From positions 138,012,001 through 138,076,000 of the forward strand of contig OX597818.1 of NCBI GenBank assembly GCA_951406725.2: a stretch of 64,000 nt of DNA, given 5' to 3'. Both the position numbers and the translations under genes were made by a program. This stretch comes from Octopus vulgaris (lineage: Eukaryota). The notes beneath the pieces were generated by a model. The model did no database searches, had not been told where the DNA came from, and was given only the letters and a program-made list of their open reading frames with translations. Positions 15,876-64,000 of this stretch are shown here, in pieces; position 1 is the stretch's first letter; each line of letters starts with the position of its first letter.

Positions 15876-18800
15876 AGCGCTTCGAGAAATGAGATCGATG
15901 AAATGACGTAGCGGTTCGTCAAACGGGATCGATAAAATGACGTAGCGGTTAACCAAACGAGATCGACAAAATGACGTAGTGGTTCCTCAAATGGGATCTA
16001 AAAAGTGACTTAGCGGTTCGACAAATGAAATCGATAAAATGACGTAGTGTTTCACCAAAGGTGAAGGGTAAAATGACTTAGCGGTTCGCCAAATAACATC
16101 GTCAAACGAGATTGATAAAATGATATAGCGTTTCACCAAACGAAGATCGATAAAATGACTTAGCGGTTCGGCAAACGAGATCGATAAAATGACGTAGCGT
16201 TTCGCCAAACAAGATAGATAAAATGACGTGGCGGTTCAACAGACGAGATCGACAAAATGACGTAGCGGTTCGCCAAACCAGATCGATAAGATGACTTAGC
16301 GATTCGACAAACGAGATCGATAAAATGATGTAGCGGTTCGCCAAATAATATCGATAAAATGAGCTAGCAGTTTGCCAGACGAGATCGATAAAATGACGTA
16401 TCGGTTCGCCAAATACAATCGATAAAATGATGTAGCGTTTCGCCAAACAAGCTCGTTAAAATAACTTACTGGTTCTCCAGAGGAGATCGATAATAAGACT
16501 TAGCGGTTCGCCAAACAGAGTCGATAAAATGACGTAGCGTTACGCCAAACGAGATCGATAAAATGACGTAGTGGTTCGTCAAATATGATCGATAAAATAA
16601 CTTAGCGATTCAACAAACAGCAGTTCGTCAAACGAGATTGATAAAATGACATAGCGATTCACCAAACGAAGATCGATAAAATGACCTAGCGGTTCGGCAA
16701 ACGAGATCGATAAAATGACGTAGCCGTGCGCCAAACGAGAATTGATAAAATGACGTAGCGTTTCACCAAACGAAGATCGATAAAATGACGTAGCGGTTCG
16801 CCAAACGAGAACGATATAATGACGTAGCGTTTCGACAAACGAATATCGATGAAAAGGCATTAGCGGTTCGCCAAACAATATCGATTAAATGAACTAGCAG
16901 CTCGCCAAATGATGATCGATAAAATGACATAGCGTTTCGCCAAACGAAGATCCATAAAATGACATAGCGGTTCGCCAAACGAGTTCGATAAAATGACCTA
17001 GTTTATCGCCAAACGTGATAGATAAAATCACGTAGGGGTTCGCCAAAAGAGATCGATAAAATGACATAGCGGTTCGCCAAACTAAGATCGATAAAATGAC
17101 ATAGCGGTTCGCCAAACCAGATAGATAAAATGACTTAGCGTTTCCCCAAACGAGATTTAAAAAATGACATAGTGGTTCGCCAAACGAGTTCAATAAGATG
17201 ACGTAGCGATTCGCCAAATGAAGATCGATAAAATGACGTAGCGGTTCGCCGAACGAAGATCGATAAAAGGACGTAGCGGTTCGCCAAACTGTGTTTGATA
17301 AAATGACATAGCGCTTCCACAAACAAGATCGATAAAGTGACGTAGCGATTCGCCAAACATGATCGAAAAAATGACATTGCGGTTCGAAAGACCGGATTGA
17401 TAAAATGTCGTAGCGATTCGCCAAACGAAGATCGATAAAATGACATAGCGATTCGACAAACGAAGATCGATAAAATGACATAGCGGTTCGCCAAACGGGA
17501 TCGATAAATTGACGTAGCAGTTCGCCAAACGAAGATCGATAAAATGACATTGCGGATCGACAAAAAAGATCGCTAAACTGACGTAGAGTTCGCCAAATGA
17601 AGATCGATAAAATGACGTAGCGGTTCGCCAAACGAAGATCGATAAAATGACATAGCGGTTCGCCAAATAAGGTTCGATAAAATGACGGAGCGGTTCGACA
17701 AACGAAGTTCGATAAAATGTCAGAGCGGTTCGCCAAACGAAGATCGCTAAAATGACATAGCGGTTCGCCAAATAAAGATCGACAAAATGACTGAGCGGTT
17801 CGATAAAAGATGATCGATAGTATAATACAGCGGTTCGCCAAACGAAGATCGATAAAATGACATAGCGATTCGCCAAATAAAGATCGATAAAATGACGTAG
17901 CGGTTCGCCAAACGAAGATCGATAAAATGACATAGCAGTTCGCTAAATAAAGATCGATAAAATGACATAACAGTTCGCCAAACGAGTTCGATAAAATGAC
18001 GTAGCGGTTCGCCAAACGAAGATCGATAAAATGACATAACCGTTCGCCAAACGTGATCGATAAAATGACGTAGCGGTTCGCCAAACGAAGATCGATAAAA
18101 TGACATAGCAGTTCGCTAAATAAAGATCGATAAAATGAACTAGCGGTTCGCCAAACGAGTTCGATTAAATGACATAGCGAATCGCCAAACGAGATCGATA
18201 AAATGACGTAGTGGCTGCCAAAGGATAATCGATAAAATGACATTACGGTTCGCCAAAGGAAGATCGATAAAATGACGTAGCGGTTCGACAAATGAAGATC
18301 AATAAAATGAATTACCCGTTCGCCAAACGAGATCGATAAAATGACGTAGCGGTTCGCCAAACGAAGATCAATAAAATGACATAACCGTTCGCCAAACGTG
18401 ATCGATAAAATGACGTAGCGGTTCGCCAAACGAAGATCAATAAAATGACATAACCGTTCGCCAAACGTGATCGATAAAATGACGTAGCGGTTCGCCAAAC
18501 GAAGATCGCTAAAATGACATAGCGGTTCGCCAAATAAAGATCGACAAAATGACTGAGCGGTTCGATAAAAGATGATCGATAGTATAATACAGCGGTTCGC
18601 CAAACGAAGATCGATAAAATGACATAGCGATTCGCCAAATAAAGATCGATAAAATGACGTATCGGTTCGCCAAACGAAGATCGATAAAATGACATAACCG
18701 TTCGCCAAACGTGATCGATAAAATGACGTAGCGGTTCGCCAAACGAAGATCGATAAAATGACATAGCAGTTCGCTAAATAAAGATCGATAAAATGAACTA

Positions 18801-20279
18801 GCGGTTCGCCAGACGAGTTCGATTAAATGACATAGCGATTCGCCAAACGAGATCGATAAAATGACGTAGTGGCTGCCAAAGGATAATCGATAAAATGACA
18901 TTACGGTTCGCCAAAGGAAGATCGATAAAATGACGTAGCGGTTCGACAAATGAAGATCAATAAAATGAATTACCCGTTCGCCAAACGAGATCGATAAAAT
19001 GACGTAGCGGTTCGCCAAACGAAGATCAATAAAATGACATAACCGTTCGCCAAACGTGATCGATAAAATGACGTAGCGGTTCGCCAAACGAAGATCAATA
19101 AAATGACATAACCGTTCGCCAAACGTGATCGATAAAATGACGTAGCGGTTCGCCAAACGAAGATCGCTAAAATGACATAGCGGTTCGCCAAATAAAGATC
19201 GACAAAATGACTGAGCGGTTCGATAAAAGATGATCGATAGTATAATACAGCGGTTCGCCAAACGAAGATCGATAAAATGACATAGCGATTCGCCAAATAA
19301 AGATCGATAAAATGACGTAGCGGTTCGCCAAACGAAGATCGATAAAATGACATAACCGTTCGCCAAACGTGATCGATAAAATGACGTAGCGGTTCGCCAA
19401 ACGAAGATCGATAAAATGACATAGCAGTTCGCTAAATAAAGATCGATAAAATGAACTAGCGGTTCGCCAAACGAGTTCGATTAAATGACATAGCGATTCG
19501 CCAAACGAGATCGATAAAATGACGTAGTGGCTGCCAAAGGATAATCGATAAAATGACATTACGGTTCGCCAAAGGAAGATCGATAAAATGACGTAGCGGT
19601 TCGACAAATGAAGATCAATAAAATGAATTACCCGTTCGCCAAACGAGATCGATAAAATGACGTAGCGGTTCGCCAAACGAAGATCAATAAAATGACATAA
19701 CCGTTCGCCAAACGTGATCCATAAAATGACGTAGCGGTTCGCCAAACGAAGATCGATAATATAAAAAAGCAGTTCGCAAAAAGAAGATCGATAAAATGAA
19801 CTAGCGATTCGCCAAACGAGAACGATAAAAAGACATAGCGGTCCGACAAATGAGATCGATAAAATGACGTAGTGGCTGCCAAAGGATGATCGATAAAATG
19901 ACATTGCGGTTCGCCAAATGAAGATCGATAAAATGACGTAGCGGTTCGACAAATGAAGATCAATAAAATGAATTACCCGTTCGCCAAACGAGATCGATAA
20001 AATGACGTAGCGGTTCGCGAACCGAGATCGATAAAATGAAATAGCGGTTCGCCAAACTAAGATCGATAAAATGACGTAGCGGTTCGCCAAACGAAGATCG
20101 ATAAAATAACGTAGCGTATCGCCAAACCAGATCGGAAAAATGAAATAGTGGTTCGGCAAACGAAGATCGATAAAATGACATAGCGGTTCGCCAAACGAAG
20201 ATCGATAAAATGACATAGCGGTTCGCCAAACTAAGATCGATAAAATTATCTAGCGGTTCGCCAGACTAAGATCGATAAA
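15876..20279 (+). repeat. 34/35-bp CpG-rich satellite array, left arm (roughly 125-130 units)
   Basis: Unit GATCGATAAAATGACGTAGCGGTTCGCCAAACGA(A). Confidence 0.97.
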
Positions 20280-38618: not shown

Positions 38619-39178
38619 CACGCACACAAACAAAGAAAGTGTTTCGTTACGTGGCACCTTGAGCAAGTGTCTTATAATAGATATTTCTTTATTGCCCACA
38701 AGGGGCTAAACATAGAGAGGACAAACAAGGACAGGCAAAGGGATTAAGTCGATTATATCGACCCCAGTGCGAAACTGGTACTTTTATTTATCGACCCCGA
38801 AAGGATGAAAGGCAAAGTCGACCTCAGCGGAATTTGAACTCAATATAAACCCAAGGCTGATTCAGGCCTTGTGAGTGGATTTGGTAGACGGAAATTGAAA
38901 GAAGCCCGCCAACTGAAATATACAGAATAATCAAAAGTAAAATACAATTAAAGTTCCTCAAAAAATTCTTCACAAGTGCTAAGTTACCTTCCACAATTCC
39001 TACATGAACAGTCAAAAAGTGTGGTCTCCCCTATTGTTGGACTTGCATCAACCTTATTGAAGACACAATGTCGGTCACTTTTGTTGAAACGTTAAGTTAC
39101 GGGGACGTAATCACACCAACACCAGTTGTCAATCGATGGTAGGGGACAAAAACAGAGATATACACACATAAATATATG

Positions 39179-45818: not shown

Positions 45819-47001
45819 TATATGCGTGAGTGTATGTGTGTATGTGTGTATAATACACACACATGCGTGCACACAAACATACACACACATACACACACAA
45901 ATACACACACGTATGATGGTGGCTTCGATTTCTGGATGGAATGGTGAGCTCTGGTCTTGAGCAAAACACTTCATCTCAGGTTGCTCCAATAATAAGTTCA
46001 AGCAGAAGCTGGTAAGTTAACACTGCGCCGGACTAGCGTCTTGTCCAGGGAGGAAATTTTGTCATTGAAGTCAATTACACGGCATAGAAACTGAGTGAAA
46101 TTTCAGCCTCTATCTTTCTTAGGGATTAGAACAGACCCGAACTGTGTAGAAACTCATATTTATAAACTTTTAAAATGCATTTGGATGAATAAAGATACGC
46201 ACGCTCAGACGCACACACACGCATATCTTTATTTTTCTTTGTCTCTCTTTTGCCTTCCTCCCTCTCTTCTCCCTCTTTCACTCCCTGATACTTTACTTCT
46301 TCCTTCGTTCTGACATTCTATCTGTCTTTCTCTCATCTCCAGTCCTTCGAGGCACTTTCATTTTCTTTTGAGTCTCCGTCATGCGGCTGCACGGCTTCTT
46401 ATTATTTTTTTATTGTATATGTATAATTCATTTTGTTGTGTTCGTTTCCGTCATTTTTCCGTGTGTTCTCTACTTATTCCCAGTGGCTTTTTCGCCACTA
46501 GCGCCACCAAAAGTGAACAATATCAACGTTAAAAGCGCGAAATTGTAAGCATTATTTGGACGTTGATTGATGAAGAATTATCTACGAATTTTCTGTTTAT
46601 TATGCTTTTGTAAAATATTCCGTATTTTATGTTTTTGTTAAATTTTCGTTATTGATAGGATTAACAAAAAGTACTCCATTCAGTGAGAGATAAATATCAT
46701 TCGATATACAGAATTTTAAAAAGAGCTACCAATAGTACAAAGAAAGGGGTCACAAATCTTGTTTCCTTTATTTTTCTTTCCTTTCTTTTCATTCCAGTTT
46801 TCTACGTCTATATTCTTCTCGTTTTTTTCTTCTCTCTCGTGTTTTCTCGCACACTAGCGTCCTGGTTTCTAAATAGGACTAACTGTCTATACAGAGCCCC
46901 ATGGATTGCTTGGAGACACATATCATGTTATACAAACCTGCAATATTATTCTATCTCTACGGCATGAAACTATTAGTAGCTCTTTTTCAAAATCTGTGCG
47001 T

Positions 47002-47206
47002 GACTGTGTGGTAAGTAGCTTGCTTACCAACCATATGGTTCTGGGTTCAGTCCCACACCGTGGCACGTTGGTCAACTGTCTTCTACTATAGTCTTAGGCC
47101 GACCAAAGCCTTTTGCGTGGATTTGTTAGACGGAAACTGAAAGAAGCCCGTCGTATATATGTGTGTATATATATATATATATGTGTATATATATATACAT
47201 ATATAT

Positions 47207-47267
<61 letters not shown>

Positions 47268-47556
47268 TGTATGTATGTATGCATGTATGTATGTATGTAT
47301 GTATGTATGTATGTATGTATGTATGTATGTATGTATGTGTGTGTATGTTTATTTGTGTTTGTCCTCCCAACACCGCTTGACAACAGATGATGGTATGTTT
47401 ACGTCCCCGTAACTTAGCGGTTCGGCAAACGAGATCCAATAGAATAACTACTACGCTTACAAAGAATACGTCATGAGATCGATTTGCTCGACTAAAGGCG
47501 GTGCTCCAGCATGGCCACAGTCAAATGACTGAAACAAGTAAAAGAGTAAAAGAGTA
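47002..47556 (+). mobile_element. SINE family B, diverged
   Basis: Head, internal (TA)/(ATGT) tract, tail GGCGGTGCTCCAGCATGGCC. Confidence 0.88.
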
Positions 47557-47560
47557 TATA

Positions 47561-47615
47561 TAACTTAGATAAATTTAGATATGTTTCGACCAAAGATTGG
47601 CCCGAGCCAATAGAT
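47561..47615 (-). mobile_element. 3' tip of the CR1-group LINE family seen at 61588-62950
   Basis: RC CCAATCTTTGGTCGAAACATATCTAAATTTATCTAAG matches 62904-62941. Confidence 0.75.
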
Positions 47616-47734
47616 CCATTTATTTCGGTAAGTATATTATTATTCACGAATATACCAGTACCACCGCCCCTGAGGGTAATATTCTCTGAGAACGCATAAA
47701 ATCCCAAGACATATCCAAACTCAAGGTATATCTT

Positions 47735-47811
47735 GAGTTTGTTGCACTGATGAGCATAGAATGCATATTCTGCATTAATTGCGAAATCATAGGTGATATG
47801 TAACTAAATTC
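47735..47811 (+). ncRNA. Type I hammerhead ribozyme (predicted)
   Basis: Stem I GUUGCA/UGUAAC (extendable GAGUUU/AAAUUC), CUGAUGA 47747-47753, stem II GCA/UGC, GAAA 47783-47786, stem III AUCA-UAGG-UGAU, cleavage triplet AUA (after 47798). Confidence 0.75.
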
Positions 47812-48054
47812 TTTTTTTTAAATGACTTGCTTTGAAGTTTTGCATTCGGTAAAATTTGTTTATTTTAGTAGTTTTGACCGCAAGGGTCACTCTTAGCGTG
47901 AGGTATCTACGAATAGTAGTACCCTCTATATAATATAAATAAATATTTTCAAAGTGGAAAAATTTACGGATTTTTTCTCTTACGAGGTTTTTCACGCTAA
48001 CTACTGATAATTTCTTATAAAGATTTTATCCTCAATTTTAAATTTATATATATA

Positions 48055-48119
<65 letters not shown>

Positions 48120-49275
48120 GAAAGAATGGAGTCGAACGACGATTTAACAAAATTCCTTTATTCTCGAAGACTGCATATTCTTAATTCCGAAGGAATAAAG
48201 GGTGCATTATGCCGTCTTCTCATCAGGAAAGACAAGGAACTTATGTCAGTATCATGACGAACAAAAACTTTTAGATGACTGCCCACACGGAGTCCATAGT
48301 GATAAAAAACACACAAATTTCCACACGAAAGCACGTGATCTCTGCCCTTGGCATGTAGCTTCAACCGTGCTTTCTGACGTAAATTTGCTACCCGGGTATC
48401 AGTTAACCGAATTATCCATACTAAGATAATTCATTCAACTACTTAAATATATAATAAACTTGGCTTATTCGGAATTTACAACCGATAGGCAGTACCTGTA
48501 GTCACTTGAGGGACATCTATCTATCAGTCTGTCTATCTATCTATCTAGCTAGCTAGCTAGCTATCCATTTATAAGTTATATATATATATATACGACGGGT
48601 TTCTTTCAGTTTCCGTTTACCAAATCCACTGACAAGAATCTGGTCGGCCCGAGGCTGTAGCAGAGGACACTTGTGCAAAACCCGAAACCATGTGGCTGGT
48701 AAGCAAGCTACTTATCACACAGCCACTCCTCTGTATGAATACACATATGGATGTATACATTCGTACATATTTACATACGCACAGACGGACATATATAAAC
48801 ATATGCTAATGCATTCCTACATACATAATACATACATACATACATACATACATACATAAATACATACATACATACATACATACATACATACATACATACA
48901 TAAATACATACATACATACATAAATACATACATACATAATTACATTCATACATACATACATACGCATGTATCATACGTTTTTTTTTGCTCTTAACGTTTT
49001 GAAGTAGTTGTAGTAGTAATGGTGATGGTGGTGGTGGTGATGGTGGTGGTGCTAGTGGTGGTGGAGGCGGTGGTGGTGGTGATGGTGGTGGTGCTGGTGC
49101 TTGTTGTAGACATCGTCGTCATGATGGATGTCGGGATGACGTTAGTAGTCCATTTAACGTATATTTTGTCTACCTGTAGATGGTTCAATACCCCTAACCC
49201 TTCTCCTCTCTGATTTTTTCACCTCCCCCCTTTCCTCTCATTCATTCTCCTTCCTTCAATATCTTTCCTTTTCCA

Positions 49276-63126: not shown

Positions 63127-63337
63127 ATATATATGTGTATATATATATATATGTATGTATATGCATGTATATATATATATATATATATATAATTTATATA
63201 TAGAGGGCATTATACATACATGCCAGAGGGCATTATACATACATGCCACACGCTAAGAGGGACAATTAGTCATTTCTACCAAAAATTTTACTAATCCCAC
63301 CGAATGCAATTTTTCAAAGTAAGACATTTAAAAATAT

Positions 63338-63385
63338 AGACTTGTATCACTGTGATTTCATACCTCTGTATTCATCAGCAAGCCT
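63338..63385 (-). ncRNA. Minimal type I hammerhead ribozyme (predicted)
   Basis: RNA: AGGCUUG CUGAUGA AUAC-AGAG-GUAU GAAA UCA-CAG-UGA UA CAAGUCU; all core nucleotides canonical and three stems pair. Confidence 0.85.
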
Positions 63386-63597
63386 GGACGTATCATAAAT
63401 AAACGACCCTGCCTCGCTTAAGCCGAGCAGCTAACTGGTCAACATCAACGAAGCACATGGGTGAGTTTACATATATTACATCCGGTAAATGGCAGACTTT
63501 TACGAATTGCATTTCGGGAAAGGAAAAGTTTTTTCGGAATAAAAATTTAGCAATTAAGGACAACTATTTAATAAGGAAAACTTAACAAGAAATTGTC

Positions 63598-63654
<57 letters not shown>

Positions 63655-63792
63655 TAATTTAGGCTATCTAAGATATACCACCACGCTTAAAATAGTAGCC
63701 AAAACTTGACTCTAAAACCACATTAAAAGTTCATACGGCACCAGGAGAGAAGACAAAAAGACAAAATAAACTAGCAAAAAAATTACTGGATA

Positions 63793-63850
63793 ATTCCAGA
63801 TCCCGGATTTCTGGCTCTGCATAAGAAATGCTTTGCCTCTTCAGTGGAAT
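63793..63850 (-). ncRNA. Type I hammerhead ribozyme variant with one extra A before GAAA (predicted)
   Basis: RNA: AUUCCA CUGAAGA GGC-AAA-GCAU-UUCUU-AUGC-AGA-GCC A GAAA UC-CGG-GA UC UGGAAU. Confidence 0.7.
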
Positions 63851-64000
63851 ATACACAGCACATAAATACAAAGATATATATATATATAACATACGAATAC
63901 TTACATACACGAACGTATATATACATGTATATGCACGTATGCACCCGACCGGTTTTAATTGTCCGCCAAAAACTCCTCATGCGATATGGTCAAATATATC

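Follow-up and report, generated by a model that had tools for sequence, protein, structure and literature searches.

The ribozyme motif and its surroundings

The window analyzed here, a stretch of 64,000 nucleotides of the Octopus vulgaris genome (contig OX597818.1), carries a type I hammerhead ribozyme motif on its forward strand. The motif is no independent gene but lies near the 5' end of a partial copy of a 491-base non-coding repeat, and the copy ends at a (TA)n microsatellite. A second hammerhead, which belongs to a sister repeat family, is found on the opposite strand of the same window. The positions of all these features are collected in Table 1.

Table 1. Features of the ribozyme-bearing repeat copy and of the sister hammerhead, in window coordinates
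Feature	Position	Strand	Basis or remark
Type I hammerhead ribozyme motif, whole	47735..47811	+	direct sequence reading and covariation of stems I and II
Stem I, 5' strand GAGUUUGUUGCA	47735..47746	+	pairs with 47799-47811
Core CUGAUGA (C3-A9)	47747..47753	+	sequence read
Stem II GCA/UGC closing 23 nt, with inner hairpin	47754..47782	+	reading and fold; proximal four pairs covary
Core GAAA (G12 A13 A14 A15.1)	47783..47786	+	sequence read
Stem III AUCA/UGAU, 4 bp, loop UAGG	47786..47797	+	invariant across all versions collected
Predicted cleavage site, after A17 (47798) and before U1.1 (47799); triplet AUA	47798..47799	+	hammerhead numbering applied to the sequence
Stem I, 3' strand UGUAAC-U-AAAUUC	47799..47811	+	reading and covariation
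Run of eight T directly 3' of the ribozyme	47812..47819	+	found in family copies too
Partial copy, 321 bases, of the 491-base non-coding unit	47729..48049	+	unit positions 490-491, then 1-319
Short palindrome at the 5' junction (CAAACTCAAG / CTTGAGTTTG): initial bases of the copy, duplicated in inverse orientation	47716..47728	-	10/10 and 12/13 bases
(TA)n microsatellite adjoining the 3' end of the copy	48050..48117	.	sequence read
Hammerhead of sister repeat family, stem II AUAC-AGAG-GUAU	63330..63392	-	64.3 bits, model partly built from the same sequence

By direct reading, stem I comprises 12 bp with one bulged U. Stem II has the layout GCA-[UAG-AAUGCA-UAUUC-UGCAUU-AAU]-UGC, in which a 3x3 internal loop separates the closing pairs from a 6-bp hairpin (AAUGCA/UGCAUU) with the loop UAUUC. 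Two features relevant to a putative tertiary contact of helix I, at its bulge or loop, with loop 2 are the bulged U and, in the 3' part of stem II, a conserved UAA. Stem III begins with the final A of GAAA, and its strands are A-UCA at 47786-47789 and UGAU at 47794-47797; the intervening loop at 47790-47793 is UAGG in the window copy and CAGG in most copies. No core base is missing, and the pairs G10.1-C11.1, A15.1-U16.1 (A47786-U47797) and 1.1-2.1 (U47799-A47746) are formed. The nucleotide at position 17, immediately 5' of helix I, is A (47798) and not G. Judging from the strand order, the topology is that of type I, with helix I open and helices II and III closed by loops. The AUA triplet falls within the ordinary NUH rule, and has been described in a review as a slow triplet in engineered ribozymes (PMC3138052).

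Each hammerhead element that the initial annotation had placed at 47735-47811 is found where it was placed, and its predicted cut between 47798 and 47799 agrees with hammerhead numbering as applied to the sequence. The distance to the (TA)n tract, put there at about 230 nt, is approximately 238 bases (47812-48049), the tract starting near 48050.

Genome-wide occurrence and covariation of stems I and II

A pattern that fixes only the core and stem III, CTGATGA-N6-36-GAAATCA-N2-6-TGATA, was searched in the 2.8-Gb genome and in a reversed control. It matched 1503 times genome-wide (755 + 748) and once in the control (0 + 1). The looser pattern CTGATGA-N6-36-GAAA has a chance expectation of 1.5 per window. 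The common GAAAUCA...UGAUA is combined with at least 10 stem I/II designs genome-wide.

From the returned loci, together with 18 places hand-picked for a different-looking stem II among the first 100 matches listed, 67 distinct sequences (104 instances) were collected. The alignment consists of 46 rows, of which 44 are representatives of differing stem I/stem II designs and two are the window copies. Since the search pattern had fixed only the core and stem III, stems I and II provide a fair test of covariation. In the 46 rows, which are mutually related and pattern-selected, standard pairs occupy 87.4% of the cells, compared to 25.6-42.1% after a shift of the partners by 1-3 columns. The covariation score of 0.487 was reached by none of 500 shuffles, and the shifted versions score 0.122 at most. 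Changes on both sides were found for all seven tested pairs of proximal stem I and for all four tested pairs of stem II, and all of these stay paired. In helices I and II, 82-83% of the cells are paired, and RNAalifold recovers both stems unprompted.

The retention of pairing in stems I and II while their sequence is replaced between families indicates selection on the RNA fold. Judged from the sequences, the motif is real and more than chance, and the comparative evidence is decisive on this point. The initial annotation had pictured a divergent family of AUH-cleaving hammerheads with a common stem III, and the strong covariation of at least 10 stem I/II designs supports this picture. Its companion example, the sister ribozyme at 63338, is read on the minus strand; its stems I and II differ from those at 47735-47811 yet pair, and it has the same GAAAUCA...UGAUA. 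The covariation among homologues that had been suggested as a check was obtained for stems I and II, with compensation in 11 of 11 pairs, and not for stem III, which is invariant.

Stem III and a competing fold

Stem III is without covariation support because it never varies in the collected set; its invariance in every version is partly due to the search pattern, in which stem III was fixed. A search with position 15.2 changed gave 197 matches against 25 in the control, mostly from another motif family, and yielded no compensated variant among the first 100 listed. Four recognizable relatives occur among these 100, all of them uncompensated single copies. An unrelated hammerhead of the same genome (L096) has AUUGG/CCAAU at the place of helix III and keeps the AUA triplet.

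The minimum-energy fold of the window motif has an energy of -18.5 kcal/mol (z = -1.76), a stability matched by 12 of 200 shuffles. The hammerhead architecture foreseen in the initial annotation was reproduced only in part by folding: stem I and the stem II hairpin are recovered in the minimum-energy structure, and stem III is not, as AUCA pairs with the core UGAU instead. The hammerhead fold itself has an energy of -16.4 kcal/mol, compared to the -18.5 kcal/mol above, and the hammerhead helices account for about 0.3% of the computed ensemble. RNAalifold likewise prefers AUCA paired with U4-A7 of the core, an inactive pairing, over stem III. A helix at the stem III position is nevertheless plausible, on the strength of the general hammerhead architecture rather than of covariation. 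That its sequence is frozen while the other two stems change freely may reflect a role in conformation or recognition.

Rfam and covariance models

The Rfam hammerhead models gave no match to the motif at 47735-47811, either at the gathering score or at E values up to 10, in queries of 701 or 101 bases. They gave no hammerhead match for the 63338 copy or for two copies in the tandem locus L003. The gathering score of RF00163 is 34 bits, which the motif does not reach. The model does work on this genome, with six matches above the cut-off among 73 candidates scored; one of them, L063 at 35 bits, was detected in the same run that missed the L003 copies. The consensus of RF00163 has a helix III of ACGc/gCGU without a loop, CGAAAC and a GUC triplet, compared to AUCA-tetraloop-UGAU and AUA in the motif here. 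The miss is explained by this difference in helix III and triplet, and is not evidence against the motif. A covariance model built in this study gives 84.4 bits for 47735-47811, a sequence that is part of the training set of the model. In sequence terms the motif has the defining features of a hammerhead, and its Rfam score is below the cut-off.

The type I model of Rfam thus misses the class that has an AUA triplet and a looped 4-bp helix III, and counts based on Rfam are probably too low. Such a count is that for the giant squid genome, with 235 hammerhead_1 matches reported and no further analysis of them (PMC6962438).

The 491-base repeat and its copy in the window

The full length of the repeat unit, 491 bases, is shown by tandem copies (L003:1501-1991). 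The window copy is 97.5% identical to this natural unit, with homology extending from approximately 47727 to 48049, where the (TA)n begins. When 261 bases around the motif were used as a query, 1998 first-look candidates were returned, and the 40 of these that were scored are 90-97% identical. Copies of the unit are dispersed, in tandem, or arranged as head-to-head arms. The predicted cut site corresponds to unit position 68/69.

The GC content is 0.320 for the unit and 0.287 for the window copy, both below 45%. As RNA the unit folds at -112.7 kcal/mol (z = -3.19), more stable than its shuffles. The longest open frame in the window copy is 73 aa. The unit has no match to a protein family. Its only long open frame, of 162 aa (L003:1774-2259, minus strand), is antisense and spans one whole unit, a length reached by none of 500 shuffles (maximum 133). 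Neither a Pfam family nor a counterpart in the sister families was found for this frame, and it was not accepted as a gene.

The 5' side of the window copy is atypical. It has no (TA)n, which is found on the 3' side only, and the 10-13 base inverted piece at 47716-47728 is far shorter than the inverted arms of other copies. At the 10.1-11.1 position of stem II (47754/47782), 18 of 39 intact family copies, including the one in the window, have G10.1-C11.1, and the other 21 have A10.1 opposite C11.1, which makes two subfamilies of similar size. The sister families carry A-U at this position, which suggests a step-wise compensatory path. With approximately half of the intact copies mismatched at A10.1-C11.1, the family may be able to spread without a fully active ribozyme. 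As it possesses one ribozyme and two thirds of a unit, the window copy is predicted to be capable of cutting its own transcript and incapable of releasing a circle. We take this copy to be a young insertion, dead on arrival.

Assembled contigs from four public runs, the RNA label of which is a guess, extend over the repeat from 47727 onward, while the flank is mostly uncovered. The cut site is bridged by some of them; contigs of this kind cannot show ends, strand or circles. A strong A-to-G difference at 47777 in the public contigs was considered as RNA editing and rejected: it is a genomic subfamily difference, with G in 61 of the 100 matches listed out of 298 by hand count.

Other sequences of the window were noted in passing. 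An abundant repeat with many copies in the window occupies 47000-47609, with an internal (TA)n-rich tract at 47153-47362, and occurs inverted at 48577-48730. It is found within 1.5 kb of a retrozyme copy in 15 of 29 fetched loci, and may supply (TA)n targets. Overlapping open frames of 641, 322 and 359 aa at 16894-20249 on the minus strand have no Pfam family at the curated cut-off.

Architecture of the insertions

The insertions were compared at 28 distinct loci (L002-L030; L017 was left out, since it and L003 are one locus). In 25 of them, the direct arm terminates at unit position 318-320. The exceptions are L003, for which the first of two tandem units was scored and the second ends at 319, L020 at position 298 and L021 at position 316. 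The 3' flank begins with ATA in 25 of the 28 loci, and in 17 of the 28 TA steps make up at least 70% of it over 30 bases. Sixteen loci have an inverted arm upstream, and in 15 of these the outer end of that arm is at unit position 213-216. Both fixed outer ends are TA-rich stretches of the unit that adjoin (TA)n, and the inner junctions are variable. In 8 of the 28 loci, more than one unit's length lies on the same strand, and every direct arm crosses the cut site unbroken.

According to PMC8557442, Penelope-like insertions occur as partial tandems next to an inverted 5'-truncated copy, and prefer microsatellites, (TA)n among them. By this comparison, the shape of the insertions of the 491-base family matches the Penelope-like pattern. 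Arms longer than one unit in which the cut site is intact are consistent with a template that is circular or an uncut multimer, and inconsistent with a cut linear one. The fixed TA-rich ends, the over-unit arms and the intact cut sites support the proposed copying of a retrozyme from circular or multimeric RNA by Penelope-type enzymes.

Two smaller regularities were also seen. The direct arm starts within 2 bases of one point, located 4 bases before stem I, in 5 of the 28 loci (L006, L016, L019, L023 and L027) and in the window copy (47729-47731). Runs of T follow the ribozyme directly (47812-47819) and precede the unit start by about 10 bases.

Penelope-like elements in the genome

There are 6136 GIY-YIG candidates genome-wide, and 16 of the 148 matches listed lie in open frames of 781 aa. 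One such 781-aa frame, L091 (G000:C16:20837296-20840559), combines RVT_1 with a C-terminal GIY-YIG. The L091 family is apparently intact; TGATGACGTC motifs recur within its 3' region, which spans about 1.1 kb and terminates in (TA)n. The canonical hammerhead pattern is absent from the coding strand of L091, and the coding strands of 30 Penelope loci, taken from the 6136 candidates, gave no ribozyme match, our own model matching the opposite strand only. One of these 30 loci (L092) was matched by the 491-base unit, on the strand opposite the GIY-YIG match and more than 1 kb away from it.

A search of 84 loci, composed of repeat copies, pattern matches and the six Rfam matches, found a Penelope protein fragment in two. 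In L006 a GIY-YIG fragment lies 20 bases after the repeat copy, and in L038 the fragment is a separate insertion; neither fragment shows a link to the repeat. No autonomous partner of the repeat was found among the 30 Penelope loci (of 6136) or near the repeat copies. A reverse transcriptase beside L043 is of LINE type by its motifs and lies on the other strand. A Penelope-like fragment is also present in the window itself, at 38915-39067 on the plus strand, some 9 kb upstream of the ribozyme. It aligns with residues 427-478 of that L091 frame at 48% identity over 52 aa.

Proposed life cycle and alternative explanations

We consider it probable that 47735-47811 is a type I hammerhead, predicted to cut between A47798 and U47799, within a 321-base partial copy of a likely non-LTR retrozyme that would be mobilized by a Penelope-type enzyme. 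In the proposed cycle, transcripts would arise from head-to-tail copies located elsewhere in the genome. Their hammerheads would each cut to give unit-length RNA, and a cellular ligase would close the circle. A Penelope-like reverse transcriptase/endonuclease would then nick a (TA)n microsatellite and prime on the RNA at either of two TA-rich spots, unit positions ~319 and ~215, through TA microhomology, sometimes copying for more than one round. The outcome would be a direct arm, often accompanied by an inverted arm. Retrozymes have been proposed to be non-autonomous derivatives of Penelope elements (bioRxiv 10.64898/2026.07.22.740005).

An alternative is that the motif comes from an autonomous Penelope-like element and forms part of its pseudo-LTR (terminal repeat), in which case the window would hold a 5'-truncated copy of that element. 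Canonical Penelope-like elements do have hammerheads in their terminal repeats and are frequently 5'-truncated (PMC8557442). Such elements are abundant in this genome, where they also end in (TA)n, and one GIY-YIG fragment lies as close as 20 bases past the L006 copy. However, the tandem unit closes on itself at 491 bases without a reverse transcriptase frame, Penelope protein fragments are as rare beside the repeat as described above, the one in L038 being a separate insertion, and the match of the unit to L092, like the matches of our own model, is on the opposite strand. We regard this explanation as unlikely. It is quite unlikely, too, that the repeat is satellite-like DNA amplified at the DNA level, by unequal exchange or by slippage beside microsatellites, with the hammerhead as a relic. 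Long head-to-tail arrays do exist, copies with the A10.1-C11.1 mismatch are numerous, and the triplet is one reported as slow (PMC3138052). DNA-level array growth would not, however, predict hundreds of dispersed copies on many contigs that share the same two outer ends by (TA)n and have variable inner junctions and inverted arms, nor does a relic account for stems I and II that stay paired despite the replacement of their sequence between families.

A ribozyme domesticated by the host to process a host transcript at this locus has a precedent in the few conserved hammerheads of amniotes, which are said to act in mRNA biogenesis (PMC7229834). The copy is, however, one of approximately 2000 near-identical repeat candidates, its flanks are other repeats and the microsatellite, and no frame with a known domain is nearby, the few tested of the 99 window frames of at least 110 aa having no Pfam family; domestication is very improbable. 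A resemblance of AT-rich DNA to the hammerhead consensus by mere chance is the least credible of the explanations and close to negligible. It would be in keeping with the lack of an Rfam match, with the expectation of 1.5 per window for the looser pattern and with an unremarkable single-sequence fold, but it is contradicted by the ratio of 1503 to 1 for the full pattern and by compensatory changes in all 11 variable pairs.

Returning to the retrozyme reading, a more speculative extension of it, which we put forward as a doubtful possibility from the folds and insertion ends compared here, concerns the invariant AUCA/UGAU. This could be a built-in switch, in which pairing as helix III is active and pairing with U4-A7 is inactive. 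The RNA would cut during its synthesis and then stay a closed circle, to be copied round by a Penelope-type enzyme primed on both sides of a (TA)n break at two fixed TA-rich spots, so that the insertions would be the footprint of circular-RNA retrotransposition.

Comparison with known retrozymes

The type I hammerheads of animals are described as residing in tandem repeats of ~150-450 bp that have low GC and give circular RNAs (PMC7229834). No published description of the 491-base repeat was found in the literature search. The family likely belongs to an already known kind, the animal non-LTR retrozyme, from which it differs in detail. Like the retrozymes reported from coral, mussel and axolotl (PMC7229834), it has a short non-coding low-GC unit with a type I hammerhead, tandems ranging from dimers to long arrays, thousands of motif copies, and Penelope-like elements co-resident in the genome. 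Unlike them, it has a unit of 491 bases, compared to the 150-450 bp reported, an AUA triplet, and a stem II with an internal loop and an extension hairpin. Helix III has 1-2 bp in the axolotl types, whereas it has 4 bp and a tetraloop here. For the published animal retrozymes, circular RNA and cleavage have been shown; the present family is known from sequence, and the window copy is a single partial unit.

The minimal type I forms of RF00163, found in Penelope-like elements and in newt satellite, share with the motif the core, the open helix I and the link to a Penelope-type insertion architecture. Action as dimers has been reported for such forms (PMC7229834), whereas helix III here is long enough to fold alone, although the present motif may act as a dimer as well. 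Plant LTR retrozymes (PMC4918200) are likewise non-autonomous retroelements, with hammerheads that would release a circular RNA intermediate. They are, however, described as having type III hammerheads in LTRs, a primer binding site, a polypurine tract and high GC (PMC7229834), none of which is found here. Against this background the locus itself is ordinary, as one young, incomplete copy of a ribozyme-bearing repeat.

Sister families and other hammerhead-like motifs

The 100 bases downstream of the sister ribozyme at 63338 are 73% identical to 47815-47915. Sister families form arrays as well; an example has 31 head-to-tail pattern matches about 481 bases apart, with one inverted copy upstream.

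A weaker hammerhead-like motif lies at 63784-63858 on the minus strand and scores 24.6 bits (E = 0.0014) with our own covariance model. It is composed of CUGAAGA, a stem II of GGC/GCC with a 19-nt loop, an extra A before GAAA, a helix III of AUC/GAU, an AUC triplet, and a stem I of UAUUCCA/UGGAAUUA.

A further family recurs in the genome in the form CTGATGA-T(G)GCTG...CAGC(C)-GAAAC-TAAATT. It has no hairpin after GAAA, and its stem II covaries among GGCUG/CAGCC, GGUUG/CAACC and GCUG/CAGC. Members are spaced by approximately 500 bases in places; positions of this family include C1:112014238 and C1:112014744, as well as C6:81891895, 81892400 and 81892906.
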